Source of the DNA: Rikenellaceae bacterium
GTDB taxonomy: Bacteria > Bacteroidota > Bacteroidia > Bacteroidales > Rikenellaceae
Reading direction: 5' to 3'
DNA: 64,000 nt
NCBI GenBank assembly: GCA_015060075.1
Contig: SUZE01000007.1
Span: 9,119 to 73,118, forward strand
Part shown: in pieces, positions 1,050 through 35,913 of the stretch
Layout: every line of letters starts with the position of its first letter
Numbering within the stretch: the first letter of the stretch is position 1
Position numbers and translations under genes: made by a program
Notes under the pieces: model-generated
Databases searched by the model: none
Told to the model about the DNA's origin: nothing
Seen by the model: only the letters and a program-made list of their open reading frames with translations

Positions 1050-3962
1050 ATGAAAGCAAGAAGATTTTTTGCATTTGTGGCCGGAGCAGCGATGCTTCTT
1101 GGCATTGGTGGTTGTACAGACCCTGATGAGGGTTTGAACGACTCGACCGAGGCGACTATCACAGTATCGCCTGAAACTATTGCAACTACATTGCAGGGAG
1201 AGGTAAAGGAGATTACCGTTACTTCGAACGCAGCTTGGGTTGTTACGTGCGACCAAGCAGATGTTACCATCGAGCCTATGGCAGGTGCTAAAAACGGTAC
1301 AGTTACCGTTACTATTCCCACTGTAACCACTGCTCGTAACTTCTCGATTAAGTTTGAGGCAAGCAAGCAGGCTTCAATGCAGGGTATTCCTTACACCTCG
1401 ACAGCCGAGGCCGCTGTTGCTGTATATCAGAACGAGGGTGGCGACACCAGCGTTGCAACCAATGTTAAGGAGGTGCGTGCGCTGTTGTCTGCATTGGAGG
1501 TTACTGAAACTAAAACAGACATCACCGATGAGCTCAAAGCGATGACTCTCACCGGTATCGTTGTGGCAGAGCCTAACGGAAATATGTCTAACGAGTACAC
1601 CATCAACGTTCAAGATGACTCAACAGAGGCTAATTCCGGACTTACCGTTTACAGCGTAGAGAACGCAAAGCAGTTGAAGAAGGGTGATGTTGTTAAGTTC
1701 TCGTTGGCAACTGCACAGTATCAATACTTCAAGGGTTTGTTGCAACTCGTTGCCGGTGCTTCGGTAGAGGTTGTAACAGAGGGCGTAGAGGTTAATCCTA
1801 TTGAGGTAGCAGTTGCAGACCTCAAGAACTACGAGGCGCAGTATGTGAAGGTTAGCGGTTTGACTCCTGCAAAGAGTGCAATCGGTAAGGCTTGGAACTC
1901 TACAACAGACGGTGTAAATGTTAATTTCACCACTGCAAATGGTGAGACTCTTATCGTTCGAGTAAACAAGGCTGCATCGTTTAAGAACGATATCGTTCCT
2001 GCAAAGAGTGGTGCACTTTGTGGTGTAATCAGCATCTACAACAACGATGTTCAGTTGATGCCGCAGTACGCAAGTGATATTCAACTTACCGAGGATGCTC
2101 CTGAATTGGAGGTTCAGGTTGTAACTATCGCCGAGATTACTAAGGCTGGTACATACAAGGTTGAAAACGCTTGGGTTGTAGGTTTCAATGGCAACGGTCC
2201 AATCTTCACCGATGCAAGCGGTGCTTACATCAACAGCTTTATTTACCAACACAACTACAAGACTATCGGTCAGAAGGTTACCATCGAGGGTGATGTAACA
2301 GTTCGTCAGGGTGGTTTCCAATTCGATGGTCCTACCGTTACACCATTGGAGGGTACTGAGGATGTTGTATATCCTGAAAATCCGACCGTATATGAGGGTG
2401 AGACAGTTGTTGCTCTTTGCGAGAAGTTCCTGAGTGGTGCTCACCTTGCAGAGTATGCTGCATTTAAGGGTGTTGCTGAGTATGATGGAACATACTACAA
2501 CCTCGTATTTGCAGGTCTTGATGGCAATAAGTATAAGGGCTCACTCTCTAAGACTCCGGATGCAAGTCTTGGTCTTGATAAGTTGAATGGCGTACCTGTT
2601 ACTTTGTACGGCTTCGTTGTAGATTATGGTGGTCAGTATTTGAGCATTGTTCCTACAAGCGTAGTAGAGGATAAGGACGCTGTTGTTCTTGCCGCTGATG
2701 CTATCACTAATGTTCCAAAGGACGGTGTAACTAATGCTACTCACGATATCACAGTTATTGGTATCGATGCTGTTACTACCGAGGTTGATGGTACTGTTGT
2801 AACTGCTGCTTCGGTTTCGGGCAATGTTTTGACCTACTCGGTATCGGCTAACACCGACAAGTCTCGCGAGGGTTGGATTAAGTTGAGCGCAGAGGGCGTA
2901 GAGACTGTAACCGTTGTTGTTAAGCAGTCGAGCGCACTCGCTTACAACTTTATGTCTGACGCTCCGTTTGTAGATTCTACCGGAAACTACAATGGCAACG
3001 CAAAGGTTAATGGCTCGATTGAGGTTAATGCAAGCGGTTTCAAGATTGGAACAGGTAAACTCTCTGGCTATTTCGCATCACAGCCGGTTGCAGTAGATGG
3101 CGACGTAACATTGGAGTTCTATGCAGTGGCATGGAAGGGCAAGAGCGCAACATTGTATGTTCGCAAGCAGGGCTCGACAGAGCTTCTTGGTCAGTTCATT
3201 TTGAAGGCAAATGATGGCGCAAACAATCAATCACCTTATACATTGACTCTTAATGACGACAACTACTACTCTGTAGCTGTTCCTGGCGTTGCTGCAAATA
3301 CCGTATTGGAGTTTGCAACAGATGCATCGTTTGGTAATGTTGATAACACTTCGAGTGGTCGTGCAATCGTTGTAGGCGTTCACCTCTTGGGTGGCACTCC
3401 ATCAACTCCTGATACTCCAGTTACTCCTGAGCCAGAGCCAGAACCAAATCCTGGTACACCGGAAGTAGATGGAAATGCATATCAGCTCACGCTTGCAGAT
3501 ATCAAATCAATCACTTATGCTACAGAGTGGGCGGCTTGGTCTACAACTGCCGGCGATGGCTCTGCTTGGAGTGGATTTGCATACAAGCAGACAAATTACT
3601 ATCAGTTTAGCTGGAAGAAGGATGTTGCTGCTACGGCAAATCAGAATCTTTCCCATATTCTTTGCCCTGAGGTTCCTGCTGGAAAGAAGATAACAAAGAT
3701 TACTATTACTCCGGACGCCACAACTACAAATGACCGTAAGTTTGTTGTATTGCCTGCAGATTTCGCTTACACAACAACTGTTGATGCTAACGCAACGGAG
3801 GCTGTTAATGCTGCTTATGCTGTTTCGGAGCCAACAGTAAAGAATTCGACTACACCAATCGTTATTGATTTGAGTGGCGTTGCAAACTTGCCACAGCAAG
3901 TGCAGATTCGTACTATACTTGGTGCTGCGTACGTTACAAATATTAAGGTTAGCTTCGAGTAA
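1050..3962 (+). CDS. Large surface lipoprotein with an N-terminal BACON-like domain and repeated OB-like (DUF5689-like) modules; function unknown, possibly nucleic-acid binding
   Basis: It has a lipoprotein signal (MKARRFFAFVAGAAMLLGIGGC). A BACON-like segment follows (ITVSPETIATTLQGEVKEITVTSNAAWVV). Repeated modules resemble the 9525-10958 product. A PEPEPEPNP linker is present. It is the first gene of a co-directional nuclease/TonB cluster. Confidence 0.6.
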   Translation: MKARRFFAFVAGAAMLLGIGGCTDPDEGLNDSTEATITVSPETIATTLQGEVKEITVTSNAAWVVTCDQADVTIEPMAGAKNGTVTVTIPTVTTARNFSIKFEASKQASMQGIPYTSTAEAAVAVYQNEGGDTSVATNVKEVRALLSALEVTETKTDITDELKAMTLTGIVVAEPNGNMSNEYTINVQDDSTEANSGLTVYSVENAKQLKKGDVVKFSLATAQYQYFKGLLQLVAGASVEVVTEGVEVNPIEVAVADLKNYEAQYVKVSGLTPAKSAIGKAWNSTTDGVNVNFTTANGETLIVRVNKAASFKNDIVPAKSGALCGVISIYNNDVQLMPQYASDIQLTEDAPELEVQVVTIAEITKAGTYKVENAWVVGFNGNGPIFTDASGAYINSFIYQHNYKTIGQKVTIEGDVTVRQGGFQFDGPTVTPLEGTEDVVYPENPTVYEGETVVALCEKFLSGAHLAEYAAFKGVAEYDGTYYNLVFAGLDGNKYKGSLSKTPDASLGLDKLNGVPVTLYGFVVDYGGQYLSIVPTSVVEDKDAVVLAADAITNVPKDGVTNATHDITVIGIDAVTTEVDGTVVTAASVSGNVLTYSVSANTDKSREGWIKLSAEGVETVTVVVKQSSALAYNFMSDAPFVDSTGNYNGNAKVNGSIEVNASGFKIGTGKLSGYFASQPVAVDGDVTLEFYAVAWKGKSATLYVRKQGSTELLGQFILKANDGANNQSPYTLTLNDDNYYSVAVPGVAANTVLEFATDASFGNVDNTSSGRAIVVGVHLLGGTPSTPDTPVTPEPEPEPNPGTPEVDGNAYQLTLADIKSITYATEWAAWSTTAGDGSAWSGFAYKQTNYYQFSWKKDVAATANQNLSHILCPEVPAGKKITKITITPDATTTNDRKFVVLPADFAYTTTVDANATEAVNAAYAVSEPTVKNSTTPIVIDLSGVANLPQQVQIRTILGAAYVTNIKVSFE

Positions 3963-3974
3963 CCATTTCATAAT

Positions 3975-4001
3975 CCAAGGCAGGCTGATTACCTGCCTTG
4001 G
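3975..4001 (+). terminator. Hairpin after the 970-aa lipoprotein gene (weak T tract)
   Basis: A 10-bp stem ccaaggcagg/cctgccttgg with a 7-nt loop lies 13 nt after the stop codon. Confidence 0.45.
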
Positions 4002-4034
4002 GTACAAAATTATTTACGCTGCAATAGAGAAATT

Positions 4035-4130
4035 AGGGAATATAAGGAATATAGCGATGTGCCAATCCTTAAATTCATTAAACTCCTTAAACTCACTAAA
4101 TTCATTAAAAAAGCCAATGGCTAATAGCCA
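4035..4130. repeat. Intergenic short-word tandem repeats (ggaatata x2; ccttaaa/tcattaaa words; gccaatggctaatagcc)
   Basis: Read directly from ccttaaattcattaaactccttaaactcactaaattcattaaaa. It belongs to a window-wide class of 6-10-bp word stutters. Confidence 0.6.
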
Positions 4131-4169
4131 AAAAATATTTTGAAGAACTTGAAAAACATACTCTCCGCT

Positions 4170-5402
4170 ATGCAGGGCATCAACCACAAGATTATGATTG
4201 TGTTGGTGCTTGTACTCGCTTTTACGGCTTGCGAGGAGGTTGATGACACTTGGTCGCCATATAAATCGAGTGCAACACTTCGAGATAGCCGTATCACATT
4301 CCGAGGTTACTCAATATCAGGCTACACATATGGTGACCCAGCGCTCACTTGGAGTTTACAAGTGGTAAAGGGTGCGGATTTCTGCAAGCCCGTTGCAAGT
4401 GCCGGCTTTGTAGGTAGTTCGTTCTCGTTGCATTTCTCTGAGAACAAAGGGGATTCGGACCGTATCGCAGAGGTGCGTATTACGTTTAGTGATGGTTACA
4501 CAAATAGTTTTGTAATACGCCAGCTCGTCATAACCGAACATCCGGATTATGACCTCGCTTGGGCAGAGCAACCCGAGTACAAAGAGGGTGGAGAGTTGGC
4601 ACACAAGACATATTTCACGACTACGATGAGTGGCGAGGTGGTACGAAACTACTCGGTATGCTACGACACCGACAATCTCGTGGCTCGTTGGGTGGCATAT
4701 CCCGTACACTCGATGTATATGCAGCGTGGTAGTTACAAGGCGAAGAATAGCAACGGTCGCACCGATGCGTGGGCGTTCGATGATGCGGTGTGCGAATATT
4801 CGGCGAATGGAGGGTATCGTGTTGTGCGTTACGACTATACCGACCCTGTAATTCCGCAGTCGCAGCAGTGGCAGGCGACATCAACATACGGTAGCGGTTA
4901 TGCACGAGGTCATATCCTACCTTCGGCATCGCGATACAACACCTTCAACACCAATGCGCAGACCTTCTATTCGACCAACATTATGCCGCAGGCGTACGAT
5001 TTCAATGGCGGCTCGTGGGTAACGATTGAGGGTAAGGTGCGTGGTTGGTCGTGTGCGGACACGCTATTTGTCGTTACAGGAACGCTGCTCGAAAGCACCA
5101 ATACACTGTCGAAGAGTGGTCGCACGGTAAGAGTGCCTTCGCACTGCTATAAACTTGTTTTGCGCACGAAGAGTGGCAACACCCGCAAACATATTAGCGA
5201 TATCACCTCGGCAGACGAGCTGAAATGTATCGGCTTCCTCTATGAGAACGATAACTCGGAGAAGAATACAACCCCTGCACAAGCTGCCGTATCGGTTGCA
5301 GAGATAGAACGCCGTTCGGGCTTTAAGTTCTTCCGCAACCTAAACCCTGCGATTGCCGATAAGGTGAAGGCACAGAAGAATTTGAAAGATTGGGGGTTAT
5401 AA
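4170..5402 (+). CDS. Secreted lipoprotein DNA/RNA non-specific endonuclease (Serratia NucA / Endonuclease_NS type) with an N-terminal BACON-like domain
   Basis: The ATG at 4170 gives MQGINHKIMIVLVLVLAFTAC. The active-site block is GYARGHILPSASR, followed by TNIMPQAYDFNGGSW. The 4140 start in the ORF track is a TTG. Confidence 0.85.
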   Translation: MQGINHKIMIVLVLVLAFTACEEVDDTWSPYKSSATLRDSRITFRGYSISGYTYGDPALTWSLQVVKGADFCKPVASAGFVGSSFSLHFSENKGDSDRIAEVRITFSDGYTNSFVIRQLVITEHPDYDLAWAEQPEYKEGGELAHKTYFTTTMSGEVVRNYSVCYDTDNLVARWVAYPVHSMYMQRGSYKAKNSNGRTDAWAFDDAVCEYSANGGYRVVRYDYTDPVIPQSQQWQATSTYGSGYARGHILPSASRYNTFNTNAQTFYSTNIMPQAYDFNGGSWVTIEGKVRGWSCADTLFVVTGTLLESTNTLSKSGRTVRVPSHCYKLVLRTKSGNTRKHISDITSADELKCIGFLYENDNSEKNTTPAQAAVSVAEIERRSGFKFFRNLNPAIADKVKAQKNLKDWGL

Positions 5403-15379: not shown

Positions 15380-15886
15380 ATGGAGCAGACTTCTAAATAT
15401 CAGCGTAGCATCGACCGACTGAACGATGCACTTGGCAAGGAGATTTCTTCAACCTTGCAGTATATCTATTTCCACACCATCTTCGAGGATGCGGGCTATG
15501 AACATTTGGCCCGACTGATGCGCCGTATCTCGATTGCCGAGATGGAGCATATCGAGCATATTGCCGAGCGAATTTTGTTCCTCAATGGCAAGGTTGATAT
15601 GAACCCTTCGGAGCGTGCACGACAGATTGACGAGCCGGTCGAGGCGTTGTATTTTGCCGTAAAGTTGGAGCAGAGTACTATCGACCACTACAACGAGTAT
15701 TCGCGCCTTTGTGCAGCGGAAGATGACTCTGTTACGCACAAGATATTTCAGGATATGGCGGCGGAAGAGGAGGAGCACCTCGATATTTTCCGTACCGAGT
15801 GGCAGAACTTGCTCGACTACGGCTCGCACTACCTCGCCCTGCAATCCATCGCCAACAGCAAACACAAGTCGAAAGGGGAGAAGTAG
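15380..15886 (+). CDS. bfr: Bacterioferritin-like ferritin-fold protein
   Basis: The ATG at 15380 gives MEQTSKYQ. Di-iron ligand blocks are EISSTLQYIYFH, IAEMEHIEHIAERILFLNG and AAEEEEHLDIF. Confidence 0.75.
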   Translation: MEQTSKYQRSIDRLNDALGKEISSTLQYIYFHTIFEDAGYEHLARLMRRISIAEMEHIEHIAERILFLNGKVDMNPSERARQIDEPVEALYFAVKLEQSTIDHYNEYSRLCAAEDDSVTHKIFQDMAAEEEEHLDIFRTEWQNLLDYGSHYLALQSIANSKHKSKGEK

Positions 15887-15935
15887 AAATGCAAAATTCA
15901 AAATTCAAAATGCAGAGTTAAAAGTTAAATACTCC

Positions 15936-15972
15936 GTCATTGCGAGGCTTGGCACAAGCCGTGGCAATCTCC
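15936..15972. repeat. Single copy of the GTCATTGCGAG-hairpin-GGCAATCTCC repeat unit
   Basis: The sequence gtcattgcgaggcttggcacaagccgtggcaatctcc matches the two units at 731-766 and 789-827. Confidence 0.7.
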
Positions 15973-16064
15973 CTTACATCGGCTTTTAGCCATTAGCCAT
16001 TGGCTTTTACGATTATCGCCTCGCAGATTATTCTGCGAGGCGATATTGCTATATTATTCAAGGT

Positions 16065-16688
16065 CTAATCATTTAAGTTTTTTAGATGGTATGCTATTGC
16101 ATCATTCATCATCTTGCTAACTTCGAGTACCTGATTTACAATAGTAACAAGATATGTTCTAACTGCTGGCATATTATGCATTATGGATTCAGCCGAAATC
16201 AATATTGCATCATCTGCATTGGAATATATCGCTTTGATGCACGATAAATTTTGGGAGATATGGTTACAAGCTTTGTATATAGCAAGCTCCTCTTTGGCTG
16301 TAAATGGTCTATCTTTGAGTGCATCCAAATTCTTTATATTGTATACAGGTGTTCTAACCAACAATATATTGCCTTGAAGTTCTAATCCAATACCCTTGCC
16401 TTCGCAGTTTAGCAAGATGAAAGTTCCGTTATCTCGGACTTCGTGAGGAAGATTTTCTGCTTGCAAGTATTCTTGTATAGCGCTCATACTAATTCCTGGC
16501 GTAAGAGCCTCTAAAACAGCCTTTGCCATACCATCGCCCTTTTCGGCTTGTCGTTGGAGTTTTGTCTTTTTTGCAGGCTGTTCTGTCTTCTGCTTTGGCG
16601 TTTTCTGTTTCTCCTGCTTCTCCGAAGCAACTCCCTGCTGCACACCCAATAATAAAAGGGAGAGGAGGATGGTTAATGTCTTTTTCAT
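16065..16688 (-). CDS. Secreted hypothetical protein, last gene of the AT-rich island
   Basis: It has a signal peptide (MKKTLTILLSLLLLGVQQGVAS), a Lys/Gln-rich linker and a globular domain of about 150 aa. A YbjN/chaperone-like fold is only a weak impression. The gap to the upstream gene is 11 nt. Confidence 0.6.
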   Translation of the reverse strand: MKKTLTILLSLLLLGVQQGVASEKQEKQKTPKQKTEQPAKKTKLQRQAEKGDGMAKAVLEALTPGISMSAIQEYLQAENLPHEVRDNGTFILLNCEGKGIGLELQGNILLVRTPVYNIKNLDALKDRPFTAKEELAIYKACNHISQNLSCIKAIYSNADDAILISAESIMHNMPAVRTYLVTIVNQVLEVSKMMNDAIAYHLKNLND

Positions 16689-16699
16689 AGAAATAAAGT

Positions 16700-17392
16700 T
16701 TAGTCGTTTTTGTCCTCTTGGAAAAGATTTAGTTGCGATTTTTTAGCCTCTTTTTGTCGTTTTCTGCGTTCAGAGGCAAGTTCTTTTTCTCGTTTTTTAC
16801 TCTCTTCTTTCGTCAAAGGAATAAATATATCATTGTTATTAGGATAGTTGCCTTCTATGTATAATTTTACTAATCCTGCATGAGATATAGGCTTTGTTAT
16901 ATCCCTAAATTCTGTATTGGTATTATAATCAAGGAGGACAATATCACTTTTATTTGATTGCTCTTTGATGCGAGATATAACATGTCTTACCTCTGGAATA
17001 TTATCTAATACCCATTTATATGTAGGTAGATAAATCTGCATACGAGCATCAAAATAATTTAGCAACTCTTTGCTCCTTGCTCCTTTTGCATGTCCTAGCA
17101 TTTTACCGTATTTACGAATAGTGCGTTTAACATCTTTTTGAGTATCATTTCTAAATGTTCGAAAATCGACTCCATGATGTTTGAATACTTTTAAGCCTTG
17201 CCATACCGACTCAACACAGGTTGCTGTTAAGCCATCTGTAAATGGAATGGGAATGTTTCCATGAGGATAAAATGGGCTTAATATCTGACCTGAATGTAAA
17301 GGGGAAGTTGATGTTATATCCAAAATAATGGCATTCGGAAATTCTGCCTTAATACTCTCTAATTTTCGTTTTTTATTTGCAATGTAAATCAT
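16700..17392 (-). CDS. Hypothetical protein with weak NADAR (YbiA/DUF1768)-like N-terminal motif and a Lys/Glu-rich tail; candidate antidote to the DarT-like protein
   Basis: Its start overlaps the upstream stop by 4 bp (ATGA at 17389-17392). The block SPFYPHGNIPIPFTDGLTATCVESVWQGLKVF resembles the NADAR block FSNF..DG...SxEHxFQxxKF. The C-terminal D..WG.G NADAR motif was not seen. Confidence 0.55.
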   Translation of the reverse strand: MIYIANKKRKLESIKAEFPNAIILDITSTSPLHSGQILSPFYPHGNIPIPFTDGLTATCVESVWQGLKVFKHHGVDFRTFRNDTQKDVKRTIRKYGKMLGHAKGARSKELLNYFDARMQIYLPTYKWVLDNIPEVRHVISRIKEQSNKSDIVLLDYNTNTEFRDITKPISHAGLVKLYIEGNYPNNNDIFIPLTKEESKKREKELASERRKRQKEAKKSQLNLFQEDKND

Positions 17393-18183
17393 CTTATATA
17401 TTCTGGGTTATCCAAATTTACAATAAATTCTTTTGGAATTACAGTTTTTACTAAAATTTCTGCTTGGTGATGCTTAAAATCGTTATCATCTCTACTTACA
17501 TAAGTTTTCTTGACCGCAACAAAATTAACTCTTTTTAAGTCATAAAGTGTTCCTCCAACATGATGGTTGCTATCTGTTGCATTTATATCGGAGAATAGAG
17601 TCCTTTCCCATAATGCTACATCTGTTTTGATTTTCAATAGTACCAATCTTTTGCCATCTTTTTTATGCCTATAAGCCATAGGATGATCCTCGCAAAAACT
17701 TAAACGAACATAATCTTGTAAATTATATTTCTTATCTAATTGTCGAGACTGCAAATCTCCTCCGGGTGATGGAATTTCTACGCCGTATGTATTGCACGAT
17801 TTCCACGATAATAGACCGCCATATTTTCTTATACTATCCAAGTTGCTTTCATCTGTAAAGTGGTAAAAATATCTTATGCCGTGCGATGCTAACAATTGTC
17901 TAATACTCTCACTATTCTCTTTTTTTGTAGGGAAAAGATTTTTCGTAATAGATAGTCGCAATGGTGAATCAATATTTGCGTTCTTTATCGGAGATGCTGG
18001 CTTAGAAACATCAGATGTTGTATTTATAGGTTTTCTTAACTCAGCTTCTTCATTAGACATTTTAATCAATAGGAATATGACTACTATAAGTGCAATAAGT
18101 CCTAAAATAGGGTGACACGCAAAACATCCTCCTACAATTATTATAGCCCACCAAGCACAGCCACAACCAAATCCCACATCCAT
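17389..18183 (-). CDS. Membrane-anchored DarT-like (DUF4433) ADP-ribosyltransferase
   Basis: The N-terminus has two hydrophobic helices (CAWWAIIIVGGCFAC, ILGLIALIVVIFLLI). The C-terminal domain carries DarT-type blocks YFYHFTDESNLDSIRKYGGLLS, DYVRLSFCEDHPMAY, LFSDINATDSN and HHQAEILVKTVIPKEFI, compared with DarT YH(I/F)T..NL.SI, DYVPFYF, FTD.NA and KQAE(F/V)LV. Confidence 0.7.
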   Translation of the reverse strand: MDVGFGCGCAWWAIIIVGGCFACHPILGLIALIVVIFLLIKMSNEEAELRKPINTTSDVSKPASPIKNANIDSPLRLSITKNLFPTKKENSESIRQLLASHGIRYFYHFTDESNLDSIRKYGGLLSWKSCNTYGVEIPSPGGDLQSRQLDKKYNLQDYVRLSFCEDHPMAYRHKKDGKRLVLLKIKTDVALWERTLFSDINATDSNHHVGGTLYDLKRVNFVAVKKTYVSRDDNDFKHHQAEILVKTVIPKEFIVNLDNPEYIR

Positions 18184-18226
18184 AATTTAAGTTTTTAAGA
18201 TTTAACAAATTTTATTATTATAGTAG

Positions 18227-19363
18227 TTAATAGTTTACAACTTTATCAAATGGTAGCCAACGACCATTTACATTTACTCCAATCCATCGCCATAAGCGGA
18301 TATCTTCTTGTTTGTATTTGGTGATAAACTTGAAATTTCTGTCATAAAAGTACCACTCATTTTCTCTAAGGAGGCAAATTATGTCATCTCTAAATTCAAC
18401 CTGTTCAAAGGAAGCATTTATAACTTGTTGTTCATTTGAATCTACAACGATAAAATACTTATCTCGTTTGGCACCAACGATATAAATATATTCACCTTCT
18501 TTCATGATTGGATATATCTCTTCGTAATTAAATGATATGATAACATTTCCTTCTATATCTGTAACACCCTTATAATAGGGACTTTCAAAGGCTATGCATA
18601 AATTATCGTCATACCTATAGCCTGGATATTTTAAGTTAAGCACAATTTCATTATCCAAGTTTATGTAACACATACCCTCATAATTATCGTTTATAGACAC
18701 CAAGCCATCATATTCTCTCCAACAATCTTCAAGCAATGATAAACTAGAAGCAAACGAAGCATTCCTTTTAAGAATAATTTCTCCTGATATTGAAAAAATA
18801 TAGATAGTATCTGGATGTCTATTTGTCGCCAAAATATATCCATCTAAAGTAAGTGAGATATCGTCATATTCAATAGGTATTATCATTCTACAATTCTTAT
18901 CTATTACTCCATATTTGTAGTCATTAAAGCCACCATGACCTCTTTTATACCTTACTTTTGCCAATCCAAATTCATTGAAATCGCCACAATATTCATATGG
19001 AGCATCTATACCATGACAAAGCGAAAAAGTTTTTGCGTCGTATATGAAACAATGCGGCTTGTTGTTTTCATCCATTTTTAGATGCCTATGCGTAGGATCA
19101 GTGTTATCTTTCAAACACGAAATATTCTCGTTGCTCCAATCTACTGATACAATATAAGCAGTACAAACTGAGTCAGGCGTTAAAGAGAGCATAAGAGTTT
19201 TTTCTATTACACCCTCTTTTTCGATAAAGAACTCTATCTTATAATTTTGGTTAACCTCTAAATCGAGGCAAACTATTTTGTTCGTTTTTAGAGCCTTTAC
19301 CTCTGATGAGCCAACAACCATTGTGCATGGTTTGTTACTGAAAATTCTTGCAATTGTCTTCAT
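18227..19363 (-). CDS. WG-repeat (KWG-like beta-propeller repeat) protein
   Basis: Repeated units of the form F.E.GLA.V......YG.ID..G..IIP..YD are present, for example FNEFGLAKVRYKRGHGGFNDYKYGVIDKNCRMIIPIEYDDI. No signal peptide is present. Confidence 0.7.
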   Translation of the reverse strand: MKTIARIFSNKPCTMVVGSSEVKALKTNKIVCLDLEVNQNYKIEFFIEKEGVIEKTLMLSLTPDSVCTAYIVSVDWSNENISCLKDNTDPTHRHLKMDENNKPHCFIYDAKTFSLCHGIDAPYEYCGDFNEFGLAKVRYKRGHGGFNDYKYGVIDKNCRMIIPIEYDDISLTLDGYILATNRHPDTIYIFSISGEIILKRNASFASSLSLLEDCWREYDGLVSINDNYEGMCYINLDNEIVLNLKYPGYRYDDNLCIAFESPYYKGVTDIEGNVIISFNYEEIYPIMKEGEYIYIVGAKRDKYFIVVDSNEQQVINASFEQVEFRDDIICLLRENEWYFYDRNFKFITKYKQEDIRLWRWIGVNVNGRWLPFDKVVNY

Positions 19364-19395
19364 ATCAGTACTATTTTCAGAGAGAGCTAAATTTA

Positions 19396-19581
19396 CTATT
19401 CATCGTCATAATCTTCATAATCACTACCGTCCCAATCAAAATCGTCATCTTCTTCATCGTTATAGCGACTATATCGATTTCGATTAACCATCTCCATGGC
19501 TTCCTCCATAGCTCTATCACATATATCATCCCAATCCTCCATTGACAACATGTCGTTGTCGTAATCATCAGTGTATCTCAT
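19396..19581 (-). CDS. Hyper-acidic 61-aa protein, first gene of the island
   Basis: The product is MRYTDDYDNDMLSMEDWDDICDRAMEEAMEMVNRNRYSRYNDEEDDDFDWDGSDYEDYDDE, with close to half of its residues Asp or Glu. It lies directly after the conserved leader and 32 nt before the WG-repeat gene. Confidence 0.55.
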   Translation of the reverse strand: MRYTDDYDNDMLSMEDWDDICDRAMEEAMEMVNRNRYSRYNDEEDDDFDWDGSDYEDYDDE

Positions 19582-19908
19582 AATATTTAAGTTGTTTTTT
19601 GCCCACCAACCCCGAATAAGGCGTTATTATAAATAAAGAAAGTGTGAGGTTGATTTTCGTTTATTTATAAGAAGGTTGTGGAATGACCTTGGAAGAATAA
19701 ACGCTACAATGCCTCACACCTGTATATAGCAACATATCGGTACAAGACATACCAACAGCATATATACAAGAAATGAGTGTTGCTCGTCTGCCCTCTTCCT
19801 TTGAAAACTTCCACATTTTCTTATAAGGACTTCGAAAAACACTTTCTATATGTCTGCAACCCAACGGACTGCACCACAAATATAGCAACTTATCTCGAAA
19901 AGTGCAAA
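19582..19908 (-). promoter_or_regulatory. Promoter plus a conserved 5' leader of about 290 nt (copy a of three)
   Basis: On the minus strand, -33 TTTG is at 19905-19908 and -7 TATATTTG is at 19877-19884, with 20-nt spacing. The leader aligns along its length with 35581-35913 and, more distantly, with 27162-27439. All three end in ccttattcggggttggtgggcaaa just before the ATG. Confidence 0.65.
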
Positions 19909-20090
19909 AAATAAGAGCTAACGGTAAAAAGAGAAGTAGTTTTCCGCTTTCCGTTTTAACCCTGCTACGCAGGCTTTTCTTCCTTGCGGCTCGGAAAAAT
20001 GTAAATAAATTTACTTTTTTCGCTCGCTCCGCATCGTCGGTTCCGTTTTGTTTTGTATCTTTGTAAAACAGATACAAAACAGAGATTGGT

Positions 20091-21212
20091 ATGAAGATTG
20101 TTATTCTTGGTCCTGCGCACCCATATCGTGGCGGTTTGGCATCGATTATGGAGACTATGGCACGCGAATATCAGAGTCGCGGAGATGAGGTTAAGGTCTA
20201 CACCTTCTCGCTGCAATACCCTTCGCTGTTGTTCCCCGGCAAGAGTCAATTAGTCGATAGCCCCGCACCGCACGATTTGCATATCGAGCGCATCGTCAAT
20301 ACCTGCAACCCTCTGAATTGGGTGGCGGTGGGCGAGCGTCTGCGCAAGGAGGCTCCCGATATGATTTTGATGAAGTATTGGACTCCGTTTATGGCGCCCT
20401 GCTTCGGTACTATCGCCCGTATTGCCCGCCGAAACGGCAAGACGAAGGTCATCTGCCAAATCGATAATGTCGAGCCACACGAACACCATTTGATTGATAA
20501 GCCATTCAACCGTTACTATCTCGGTGCGGTAGATGGCTTTGTCTATATGTCGGAGCAGGTGGGTGGCGAACTGCGAGCCTACACCTCCGCACCGGCGATT
20601 TTTTCGCCGCACCCGATGTTCGAGAACTTTGGCGAGAGGGTTGAGCGCAACGAGGCGTGCGAGCAACTTGGGCTTGACGCCGACAAGAGATATTTGCTCT
20701 TCTTCGGTCTTATCCGCAACTACAAGGGTTTGGATTTGCTTTTGGAGGCGTTTGAAGGGGTTGAGAATAGCGATTTGCGACTGCTTGTTGCAGGCGAGTT
20801 TTACAACGATAAAGAGCAGTATCGCCCTCTGCTCGACCGCCTTGGCGAGAGGGTAGTGATGCACGAAGGTTTTGTCAAGGATGATAATGTGCGCTACTAC
20901 TTTTCGGCGGCTGATGCGCTCATTTTGCCATATCGCACCGCTACGCAGAGTGGCGTGACGCAAATAGCATATAATTTCTCTGTGCCTATGATTGTTACGC
21001 GCGTGGGCGGTCTGCCGGAGATTGTGACTGATGGCAAGGTGGGCTTTGTTTGTGAGCCTACGGCAGAGAGTATTCGTGAGGCGATAGAACGCTTGTATAG
21101 TGGCGATGCACTTGCTTGCTTTGCCGAGAACTTCCCTGCCGAGCGCAAACGCTTTTCGTGGGCTACGATGTGCGACAAGTTGGTAGAAGTTATGAAAAAG
21201 AGTAAGGGCTGA
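20091..21212 (+). CDS. Glycosyltransferase, group 1 (GT4-like)
   Basis: The N-terminus is MKIVILGPAHPYRGGL. The C-terminal GT-B block is ADALILPYRTATQSGVTQIAYNFSVPMIVTRVGGLPEIV. Confidence 0.8.
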   Translation: MKIVILGPAHPYRGGLASIMETMAREYQSRGDEVKVYTFSLQYPSLLFPGKSQLVDSPAPHDLHIERIVNTCNPLNWVAVGERLRKEAPDMILMKYWTPFMAPCFGTIARIARRNGKTKVICQIDNVEPHEHHLIDKPFNRYYLGAVDGFVYMSEQVGGELRAYTSAPAIFSPHPMFENFGERVERNEACEQLGLDADKRYLLFFGLIRNYKGLDLLLEAFEGVENSDLRLLVAGEFYNDKEQYRPLLDRLGERVVMHEGFVKDDNVRYYFSAADALILPYRTATQSGVTQIAYNFSVPMIVTRVGGLPEIVTDGKVGFVCEPTAESIREAIERLYSGDALACFAENFPAERKRFSWATMCDKLVEVMKKSKG

Positions 21213-27161: not shown

Positions 27162-27439
27162 TTTGTGATTTTGAAAATAAATTTCTAAATTTGCGATACA
27201 TAATTACGCAGAAAGTGTAAGTTTATTCTCGGTTTGCGAATGTAGGAAGTTCGTTTTTACAATGAGGATAGGCTGCATCATCTTTCGTCATACCATCAGG
27301 TATGGCGTGGTGTTGTTGCTTATTTTAATTGTAAAGGTCTCCTACAACCTGCAAACCTAAAATAAGTCTTCAATCCCACGCTTTCTTTTTTATATTAACG
27401 CCTTATTCGGGGTTGGTGGGCAAACAAAAACTTACTAAA
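27162..27439 (+). promoter_or_regulatory. Promoter plus a conserved 5' leader (copy c, diverged)
   Basis: -33 TTTG is at 27162-27165 and -7 TAAATTTG is at 27186-27193, with 20-nt spacing. It shares the blocks cagaaagtgt, aatgt(a/g)ggaagtt, tcaggt.., aggtc..c.acaacc, and taacgccttattcggggttggtgggcaaa with copies a and b. Confidence 0.6.
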
Positions 27440-35580: not shown

Positions 35581-35913
35581 TGTTGAAATAAGTTTTTTGC
35601 CCACCAACCCCGAATAAGGCAGTTATATAAAATAAAGAAAGTGTGAGGTTGATTTTCGTCTATCTATGTGACGGTTGTGGAATGACCTAAACTGAAATAA
35701 ACGAAGCATTACCTCACACCTGAATAGTATGAGGTACGCAGAAAAGCGTATAGCCACATAACTATACAAGAAATGAGTGCTATTCGTCTGCCCATCAGTT
35801 TGCTGAAAACTTCCACATTTTCACATAAGGACAAAAGCGAAAAACACTTTCTATATGTCTGCAATCCAACGGACTGCGTTACAAAAGTAGAAACTTTTTC
35901 TGAAAAGTGCAAA
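35581..35913 (-). promoter_or_regulatory. Promoter plus a conserved 5' leader of about 290 nt (copy b)
   Basis: On the minus strand, -33 TTTG is at 35910-35913 and -7 TACTTTTG is at 35882-35889, with 20-nt spacing. It aligns with copy a over the whole length except a variable central block. Confidence 0.65.

Follow-up and report, generated by a model that had tools for sequence, protein, structure and literature searches.

Bacterial DarTG modules follow a toxin-antitoxin logic that relies on the reversible adenosine diphosphate (ADP)-ribosylation of DNA bases. In DarTG2, found in Thermus, Thermosipho and M. tuberculosis (PDB entries 7omv, 7omu and 7yk3), the partner of the DarT toxin is the macrodomain protein DarG, whereas in the DarTG1 class, described for E. 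coli C7 and Geobacter lovleyi (Schuller et al. 2023, PMC11543638; PDB entries 8baq and 8bat), a NADAR protein serves as the antitoxin of DarT. The YarT-YbiA pair of myxobacteria (PMC11125620) likewise joins an ADP-ribosyltransferase toxin to an antidote of the NADAR superfamily. The present analysis concerns an AT-rich island of five genes, designated A to E in the order of transcription, at positions 16065-19581 of a 64,000-nucleotide (nt) stretch of DNA from a Rikenellaceae bacterium (GenBank assembly GCA_015060075.1, contig SUZE01000007.1), which is referred to throughout as the window. Gene C encodes a DarT1-like ADP-ribosyltransferase and gene D a NADAR-like protein of Pfam family DUF6939, and it is likely that the two form a divergent DarT1-NADAR module, which would act through reversible DNA ADP-ribosylation and represent the functional core of a mosaic cassette.

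The C-D pair shares with DarTG1 an ARTD-type DarT toxin whose antidote gene lies directly downstream, the residues F, S and N at three DarT1-specific positions of C together with the catalytic Glu, and an antidote that is NADAR-like, with no macrodomain; 8baq is the best profile match of C among PDB sequences, and 8bat the best fold match of D. It differs from DarTG1 in that C is only ~22% identical to DarT1 and carries an N-terminal extension of ~95 residues with a putative membrane hairpin, in that the Arg52/Asp54 arrangement of DarT1 is not reproduced, and in that D belongs to a separate Pfam family, reaches the NADAR-DarT1 profile at threshold only, possesses a basic tail with a QLxLF motif and is matched by no PADLOC model. 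C resembles the toxins of DarTG2 in its fold, and they give its lowest E-values in Foldseek; however, the island holds no macrodomain, and the cut-off of the NCBIfam DarT equivalog is not reached. As for YarT-YbiA, the toxin has no relationship to DarT, and the antidote is a NADAR of the YbiA type, to which D shows no significant similarity by hhalign. A macrodomain was sought with Pfam, NCBIfam and PADLOC profiles in all five proteins and none was matched, as the initial annotation of this DNA had stated; its absence, which had been presented there as an oddity, is not unusual, since DarT with NADAR is the described DarTG1 class (PMC11543638). The type of module is thus already known, while the toxin hairpin, the QLxLF tail of the antidote, the Zorya-like and TerY-P-like wiring of related loci and a covarying leader RNA look new; a literature search found no description of the anchor, of a DUF6939 antidote with the tail motif or of the cassette context.

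The evidence that C and D form a unit comes from the comparison of genomic contexts. Eighty loci were fetched from GTDB species genomes by DUF6939 alignment, and contexts obtained through exact-protein look-ups were added, giving 87 loci with a DUF6939 gene, 86 of which have a DarT gene that adjoins it or lies at most 100 nt away. Among the genome-derived loci, which stem from named Bacteroidales and a few others, the count is 76 of 77, the exception being a 2.5-kb contig. Two gene orders occur, DarT-DUF6939, in which the spacing ranges from -7 to +74 nt, and DUF6939-DarT; in the window C and D are translationally coupled by a 4-bp overlap. It is because of this association that the pair is read as a divergent module of the DarTG1 type. 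The initial annotation had treated the five genes as one system, and the comparison does not support them as a conserved unit: only the C-D pair is constant across the 87 loci.

The product of gene C is a true DarT-family enzyme with a DarT fold. It matches the Pfam DarT profile (PF14487, DUF4433) over residues 107-256 with 92.1 bits against a cut-off of 22.5 (E 5.1e-26), and the PADLOC DarT model at 9e-18, which bears out the family assignment on which the initial annotation had staked its proposal. The AlphaFold2 model of C, with a predicted local distance difference test (pLDDT) score of 86.5, has confident Foldseek matches to DarT structures only, including Thermosipho DarTG; E-values are 4.8e-8 for Thermus DarT, 8.9e-7 for M. 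tuberculosis DarT and 7.5e-6 for E. coli C7 DarT1, with a Foldseek probability of 1.0 against 7omy, 7yk3, 7omu and 8baq and target-normalized template modeling (TM) scores of 0.54-0.59 for stand-alone DarT chains. Single-sequence PDB searches with C returned nothing useful; a profile of the domain made from nine diverse relatives had its best match in E. coli C7 DarT1 (8baq, 5.7e-13), followed by Thermus DarT2 (7omv, 5.5e-10).

Residue equivalences were taken from the profile alignment to 8baq, whose chain numbering is that of PMC11543638 plus one, and were read against the mutational analysis of that study. The catalytic Glu of DarT1, E152 (E160 in DarT2, and the E152A position of 8baq), aligns with E242 of C, located in the sequence HQAE, and H108, in YHFT, is the His of the H-Y-E motif; both are invariant in 45 homologues. 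M169 aligns with DarT1 M71, and F109 with DarT1 F18 on strand beta-1, a position occupied by Ile in DarT2. Two further positions set C apart from DarTG2 toxins: S162 aligns with DarT1 S63, where DarT2 has Tyr71 of the H-Y-E motif, and N201 with DarT1 N104, the guanine-reading residue, where DarT2 has the thymine-reading His119. None of these six residues (H108, F109, S162, M169, N201 and E242) varies within the clade of C. Since the three DarT1-specific markers are present, C is most likely directed at guanine.

The extension that precedes the DarT domain of C starts with a hydrophobic segment. Mean Kyte-Doolittle values in 17-residue windows range from 1.6 to 2.9 across the first ~40 residues, and the AlphaFold2 model places helices at residues 8-23 and 25-49, with block-mean pLDDT values of 86-91 over residues 11-40, in keeping with the two N-terminal helices that had been noted initially; they are followed by a Ser/Thr-rich linker that is disordered in the model. 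Judging from its hydropathy, this N-terminus would be a membrane anchor of N-in/C-in topology. At another locus, L096 (loci are given as L numbers and proteins as P numbers), a near-identical DarT domain carries a different two-helix hydrophobic N-terminus.

D matches DUF6939 in Pfam at 2.5e-64, and is probably a remote relative of the NADAR proteins. In agreement with the weak NADAR likeness perceived in the initial annotation, it scores 27.3 bits against the Pfam family NADAR-DarT1 (PF22397; cut-off 27), a family that is also precomputed for most D homologues, and its AlphaFold2 model (pLDDT 91.7) has a single meaningful fold match in the PDB, to 8bat, the NADAR that accompanies DarT1 in Geobacter lovleyi (E 3.8e-3, probability 1.0, TM-score 0.46-0.48). 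The motif LSPFYP...E61-x6-K68 of D can be aligned with the signature of two NADARs, E. coli YbiA (FSNF...E-x6-K) and a Phytophthora protein; E61 and K68 are invariant in the D family, and their seven-residue spacing is that of the catalytic residues E88 and K95 in E. coli C7 NADAR. For DarT1-linked NADARs, a catalytic Asp has been reported at the end of the last core strand (PMC11125620). In the model of D, the invariant D155 ends the last core strand (151-155), and this placement suggests that it may be the counterpart of D171 of E. coli C7 NADAR. Elsewhere, DUF6939 is fused to microbial PARG, canonical NADAR (PF08719), DprA/SLOG, WYL-WCX and LRR_5 (P0314, P0316, P0291, P0283 and P0297), with DUF6939, canonical NADAR and PARG united in one polypeptide in P0316; the fusions to ADP-ribose hydrolases tie DUF6939 to ADP-ribose chemistry. 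A fold search of D against viral models recovered only uncharacterized proteins of giant viruses and Erwinia phages. In jumbo Erwinia phages (pEa_SNUABM_32 and relatives, H1-H15), hypothetical proteins encoded near record position 215,500 are 28-30% identical to residues 10-158 of D, and may be phage-borne mimics of the antidote.

The C-terminus of D consists of a tail rich in Lys, Arg and Glu that is followed by the sequence QLNLF, and this resembles QL[SD]LF, the consensus of bacterial beta-sliding-clamp-binding motifs. Of 74 distinct DUF6939 proteins, 28 have the strict pattern Q[LIVM]x[LIM]F among their final 15 residues, compared with 0 of 984 internal windows, and [LI]F occurs in the tails of 61. 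Variants that follow the basic stretch include QLSLF, QLTLF, QLNLF, QLDLF and QLELF (L049, L078, L092 and others), and the motif recurs in loci of both gene orders, being less general among the most distant DUF6939 relatives. The pattern suggests a putative clamp-binding tail that recruits the antidote to the replisome; a literature search found no paper that connects NADAR proteins to such a motif.

The wider survey of loci shows the pair in several molecular settings. The DarT proteins variously carry a membrane hairpin, a coiled coil, LRR_5 and Sel1 repeats (in a protein of 1025 aa), C-terminal leucine-rich repeats (LRR) or no extension at all (in a protein of 176 aa). A ZorA-like gene (PADLOC 1.4e-7) follows the pair in 22 loci and a ZorB-like gene (1.7e-17), whose product has an SYSDLMT motif and an OmpA-like domain, in 27; these units, often located beside a Mob_Pre relaxase, occur in Bacteroides, Phocaeicola, Parabacteroides, Barnesiella and Prevotella, so that in other Bacteroidales the DarT-DUF6939 pair precedes counterparts of the ZorAB genes that, together with effectors, form Zorya. 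A Ser/Thr kinase gene stands beside the pair in 19 Segatella and Prevotella loci; in the examples that were scanned, DUF6939 lies between the kinase (STK_OB 4e-56) and a DarT-TerY fusion (TerY 1e-46), and in seven loci the fusion is followed by a PP2C gene (6.5e-14), which places the pair inside the triad of TerY, PP2C and Ser/Thr kinase that defines TerY-P. A DUF1810 protein is also present in some of these loci. The window differs from both arrangements in having none of these genes, its five proteins showing no match to the ZorA/ZorB or TerY/PP2C/kinase models of PADLOC, and the toxin carries its own membrane hairpin instead. E was considered as a relative of the ZorA-like or ZorB-like proteins, and hhalign was negative. 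Literature searches found no paper on a link of DarT/DUF6939 with Zorya or TerY-P, and none linking DarT or NADAR with Bacteroides systems, DUF6939 or transmembrane anchors.

In contrast to the constant pair, the remainder of the island belongs to a cassette frame in which a promoter and leader RNA on the 5' side and an E-type gene with a hairpin on the 3' side enclose exchangeable cargo. This reading follows from three loci (L224, L222 and L225) that hold other cargo between the leader and an E homologue. At L224 (positions 3076-5160, from a relative, GCA_052831405.1), which occupies the same site between glycosyltransferase and ferritin genes as the island of the window, the leader is followed by three unrelated small genes (for proteins of 126 aa, TerB-like by eye, 110 aa and 136 aa), the E homologue and the hairpin, with neither DarT nor DUF6939, and the site looks like a hotspot of cassette exchange. 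The leader-headed arrays at L225 (1828-5118) and L222 (2718-5121) end in an E homologue, and their contents, classified by eye, include small membrane, zinc-ribbon membrane, membrane-anchored J-domain and TerB-like proteins.

The five minus-strand open reading frames of the window are co-directional and tightly packed, with gaps of 32 nt between A and B, 43 nt between B and C and 11 nt between D and E, all of which, like the coordinates, had been given exactly in the initial annotation. The guanine-plus-cytosine (G+C) content of the island is 0.342, compared with 0.459 for the window; it is the stretch of 3.5 kb with the lowest G+C in the 64 kb, only 0.4% of sliding windows being equally low, and G+C at third codon positions is 0.24-0.39 in its genes versus 0.57-0.66 in the flanking ones. 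Two earlier hand counts, 0.28 for positions 17401-17500 and 0.50 for 20101-20200, proved exact. Cassettes have 34-36% G+C against 44-51% in the flanks in every setting checked, four in number, and a stretch of 97% nucleotide identity over 1992 bp, covering the DarT domain, D and E, joins positions 16045-18183 of the window to positions 5409-8207 of L096. At this different locus (L096-L098), the order is leader, a 69-aa membrane protein, C, D (98% identical) and E (97%); the membrane protein replaces A and B, and the membrane N-terminus of the toxin is swapped, which indicates a recent recombination event in which an anchor was apparently retained. These observations support the proposal, made initially, of horizontal acquisition, here of a mosaic cassette.

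A and B are lineage-specific cargo. A, with 26 Asp or Glu among its 61 residues (43%), is indeed hyper-acidic, and B is a WG-repeat protein as proposed (Pfam WG_beta_rep, 1.5e-9); gene callers start B at Met15 (364 aa), and no signal peptide is evident by eye. A has no Pfam match above the curated cut-off and none in NCBIfam or PADLOC, B has none among PDB sequences, NCBIfam or PADLOC, and E none in Pfam, NCBIfam or PADLOC; in PHROGs, none of the five proteins has a match. The full set of five recurs in a single congeneric lineage (L099-L101), with identities of 92% for A, 67% for B, 78% for C, 96.5% for D and 39% for E, and outside the species of the window A and B were found in no other DarT locus examined. 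They are missing from the close relatives L096, L008, L011 and L015: L008, from an Alistipes metagenome-assembled genome, has C, D and E only, and L011 a small membrane protein, C and D. A 61-aa gene upstream of DarT in L011 was considered as an A homologue and rejected, as it encodes this small membrane protein. The block of L099-L101 lies at the chromosomal site of the window, among housekeeping proteins that are 84-91% identical, and for this reason its recurrence is attributed to vertical inheritance; the five-gene synteny that the initial annotation had called for is thus present in one congener, but common descent accounts for it.

E frames the cassette on its 3' side and is no DarT-specific partner. 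Its N-terminus is signal-peptide-like, in accordance with the secretion that had been assigned to it. The E family is small (29 clusters, without a Pfam domain), and the homologues in L096, L099 and L008 are 97%, 39% and 26% identical, respectively, to the E of the window, whereas for D the identities in L096 and L099 are 96.5-98%. E homologues also close the DarT-less arrays of L222, L224 and L225.

The mechanism that we favor is inferred with respect to membrane topology, to the substrate of C, to hydrolysis by D and its targeting to the clamp, and to any role against phages. C would be held at the inner membrane by its N-in/C-in hairpin, with the domain that depends on nicotinamide adenine dinucleotide (NAD+) in the cytoplasm, where it would ADP-ribosylate guanine in single-stranded DNA. 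The adduct would prevent the cell's own DNA, or phage DNA, from being replicated, and D would strip it, allowing the cell to survive. The QLNLF motif would bring D to the sliding clamp of the replisome, where adducts in single-stranded DNA matter most, and infection or stress that lowers the level of D, or DNA brought to the membrane, could shift the balance toward the toxin. For A, B and E, there is no evidence of a part in the DarT reaction.

A number of observations weigh against this interpretation. C obtains 45.7 bits with the NCBIfam toxin_DarT equivalog, far below the cut-off of 150, and is consequently regarded as a distant, DarT1-like member of the family. The catalytic Arg52/Asp54 pair of DarT1 has no fixed equivalent in C, which has an invariant D150 and a conserved Lys or Arg two residues on, in the opposite order; Y153 aligns with DarT1 D54, the invariant D150 lying three residues upstream, and for the proton-abstracting Arg of the NAD-binding loop (R51 in DarT2, R52 in DarT1) the alignment is ambiguous, the candidates being K151/K152, where the clade has Lys or Arg, the variable R147, and R160. 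The fold match of D has a TM-score below 0.5 and its Pfam NADAR score sits at the threshold; single-sequence PDB searches with D gave nothing useful, a D profile compared with PDB sequences gave chance matches only and no NADAR, and the hhalign comparisons of DUF6939 profiles with E. coli YbiA and with a profile of three NADAR sequences did not reach significance, so that the membership of D in NADAR draws on Pfam, Foldseek and motifs. Finally, the neighbors of the island are housekeeping genes, with no defense island around it, and the leader that it shares with surface-protein genes hints at a role different from phage defense. The marginal NADAR similarity evokes the question of whether D is a hydrolase at all, or rather binds C or processes other ADP-ribose species, with C possibly acting on RNA or protein; P0316, by joining DUF6939 with canonical NADAR and PARG, suggests an activity that is not redundant with theirs. 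We consider this unlikely, as the whole D family preserves the Glu-x6-Lys signature of NADAR and an invariant Asp where the last core strand ends, and C retains the DNA-base-reading Asn of DarT1. Alternatively, the pair may be no anti-phage system and serve mainly to regulate replication or growth in normal physiology, sharing its control with surface-protein genes by means of the leader: the genomic neighborhood is of the housekeeping type, the clamp-binding-like tail of D points to the host replisome, the leader is common to LRR_5 lipoprotein genes in the window, and M. tuberculosis DarTG has been proposed to act as such a regulator (PMC12170906). Such a role nevertheless appears doubtful for a cassette that is sporadic, AT-rich and exchanged among loci and lineages, and that has relatives built into defense architectures of the Zorya-like and TerY-P-like kinds and located near Mob_Pre relaxases, a pattern typical of accessory conflict systems.

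The packing of all five genes under one promoter-leader and one terminator, the recurrence of their order in L099-L101 and the 92% conservation of A could also be explained by a single integrated defense system, in which A, B and E would be sensor or regulator subunits of a tethered DarT; a WG-repeat sensor acting in trans is conceivable, since in other genomes the pair is linked with modules that resemble sensors (ZorAB-like, TerY-P-like and LRR/Sel1 fusions). The distribution of the genes makes this improbable: A and B are missing from all other DarT loci examined, close relatives among them, their sole recurrence is at the same site of a congener, where vertical inheritance explains it, and E homologues end unrelated arrays, L224 filling the locus with other cargo. 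In C, a hydrophobic N-terminus is connected through a Ser/Thr-rich linker to the toxin domain at the C-terminus, the antidote gene lies directly downstream, and the N-terminal regions are highly polymorphic among DarT proteins; a different reading of this architecture is that of an exported or contact-delivered interbacterial toxin with D as its immunity protein. This is very unlikely, as no secretion-system genes lie nearby, the N-terminal variants are of cytoplasmic type (coiled coils, Sel1 and the TerY/vWA fusion), the hydrophobic segment is modeled as a two-helix hairpin with no cleavable signal, and the replisome-targeting-like motif of D fits the continuous repair of the cell's own DNA. 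The divergent DarT1-NADAR module is the preferred reading of the C-D pair.

To our knowledge, DarT-NADAR systems have been characterized only in Proteobacteria-type models. In gut Bacteroidales the present clade is abundant, the DUF6939 search having given 5836 database clusters, and 947 at the 50% level of identity. D is deposited as a "hypothetical protein" where the source names it, and given that no PADLOC model matches it, such loci have probably been missed in counts of gut defense systems. A more tentative possibility is that the DarT1-like toxin and a clamp-targeted DUF6939 antidote represent a portable cartridge that Bacteroidales plug into varied sensors, be they hairpins, ZorAB-like stators, TerY-P triads or LRR/Sel1 fusions; if this were true, the loci would make up an unrecognized family of membrane-coupled, DNA-ADP-ribosylating immune systems. 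Membrane tethering may restrict the reach of a DNA toxin to incoming DNA, a repair-type antitoxin may reach the replisome through a clamp-binding motif, and one effector pair may serve sensors as different as the Zorya-like and the TerY-P-like. The coordinates of the island and of related features are collected in Table 1.

Table 1. Features of the five-gene island, leader copies elsewhere in the window, and related arrangements at other loci (positions refer to the window unless a locus is named)
Feature	Position	Strand	Size	Remarks
Gene A	19396-19581	-	61 aa	hyper-acidic
Gene B	18227-19363	-	378 aa	WG-repeat
Gene C	17389-18183	-	264 aa	DarT1-like ADP-ribosyltransferase
Gene D	16700-17392	-	230 aa	DUF6939 / NADAR-like
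Gene E	16065-16688	-	207 aa	exported or signal-anchored, quickly evolving
N-terminal hydrophobic hairpin of C	18064-18162	-	residues ~8-40	read as membrane anchor
DarT domain of C	17392-17901	-	residues ~95-264	Pfam, PADLOC, Foldseek, profile
QLNLF motif of D	16721-16735	-	residues 220-224	after Lys/Arg/Glu-rich tail
Putative promoter	19877-19908	-		-33 TTTG at 19908-19905; -7 TAtaTTTG at 19884-19877; read from sequence
Structured leader RNA (candidate)	19589-19885	-	~290 nt	between promoter and gene A; 5' frame of cassette
Second leader copy	35591-35890	-		upstream of 822-aa lipoprotein with BspA/LRR_5-like repeats by eye
Partial leader copy	27296-27433	+		upstream of 742-aa LRR_5/BACON gene
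Hairpin (likely terminator)	16015-16044	-	perfect 13-bp stem	ATCGCCTCGCAGA-ATAA-TCTGCGAGGCGAT; 20 nt past stop codon of E
Zorya-like four-gene unit	L014 6001-10097; L017, L031, L038 and ~20 others			DarT of ~413 aa with coiled-coil N-terminus, DUF6939, ZorA-like of ~500 aa, ZorB-like of ~215 aa
TerY-P-like arrangement	L092 6001-8096; L086 1790-3565; L071 2261-3064			Segatella copri, Prevotella; kinase with LRR_5, DUF6939, DarT-TerY/vWA (487 aa), PP2C

The boundaries of the cassette are marked by elements at both ends. On the 3' side, the stem of the hairpin recurs downstream of E homologues at three further loci: L096, L099, which has a different loop, and L224, where the loop differs as well and the stem shows one difference. 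The hairpin is likely a terminator that forms the 3' cassette boundary, and may act as a terminator or as a recombination site. On the 5' side, the putative promoter presumably fits the Bacteroidetes consensus, and its TAnnTTTG box is invariant in 15 of 15 aligned leader copies. A scan with sigma-70 promoter and terminator consensus models remained at background level and missed both candidates, the hairpin because it has no T-run.

The leader itself, with an nhmmer E of 8e-80, lies in a gap of ~500 nt upstream of A and accompanies the cassette at other loci. RNAalifold on the 15 copies gives 46 pairs, 19 of them with compensatory changes; in a count of pairs, 20 are changed on both sides, and 94% of cells are paired versus 42-53% in slid controls. 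Of 500 shuffles, none reaches the observed value for four of five measures, and three do so for the count of further pair types. Many invariant G-U pairs identify the transcribed strand as that of the genes. Rfam has no match at E<=1 for the leader or for any part of positions 15800-20200. For metagenomes, a degenerate DNA pattern proved too loose, yielding mostly chance loci, and only the ten loci confirmed by nhmmer were used. The leader, with its strong covariation, is a candidate for a new regulatory RNA or a cassette-frame element, and may prove to be a riboregulator of a new type at the head of exchangeable cassettes of accessory genes in Rikenellaceae. In metagenome contigs, the element heads unrelated accessory genes, many of them for lipoproteins or large surface proteins, and it could represent a new class of regulatory RNA that serves accessory genes and variable surface genes of gut Rikenellaceae.

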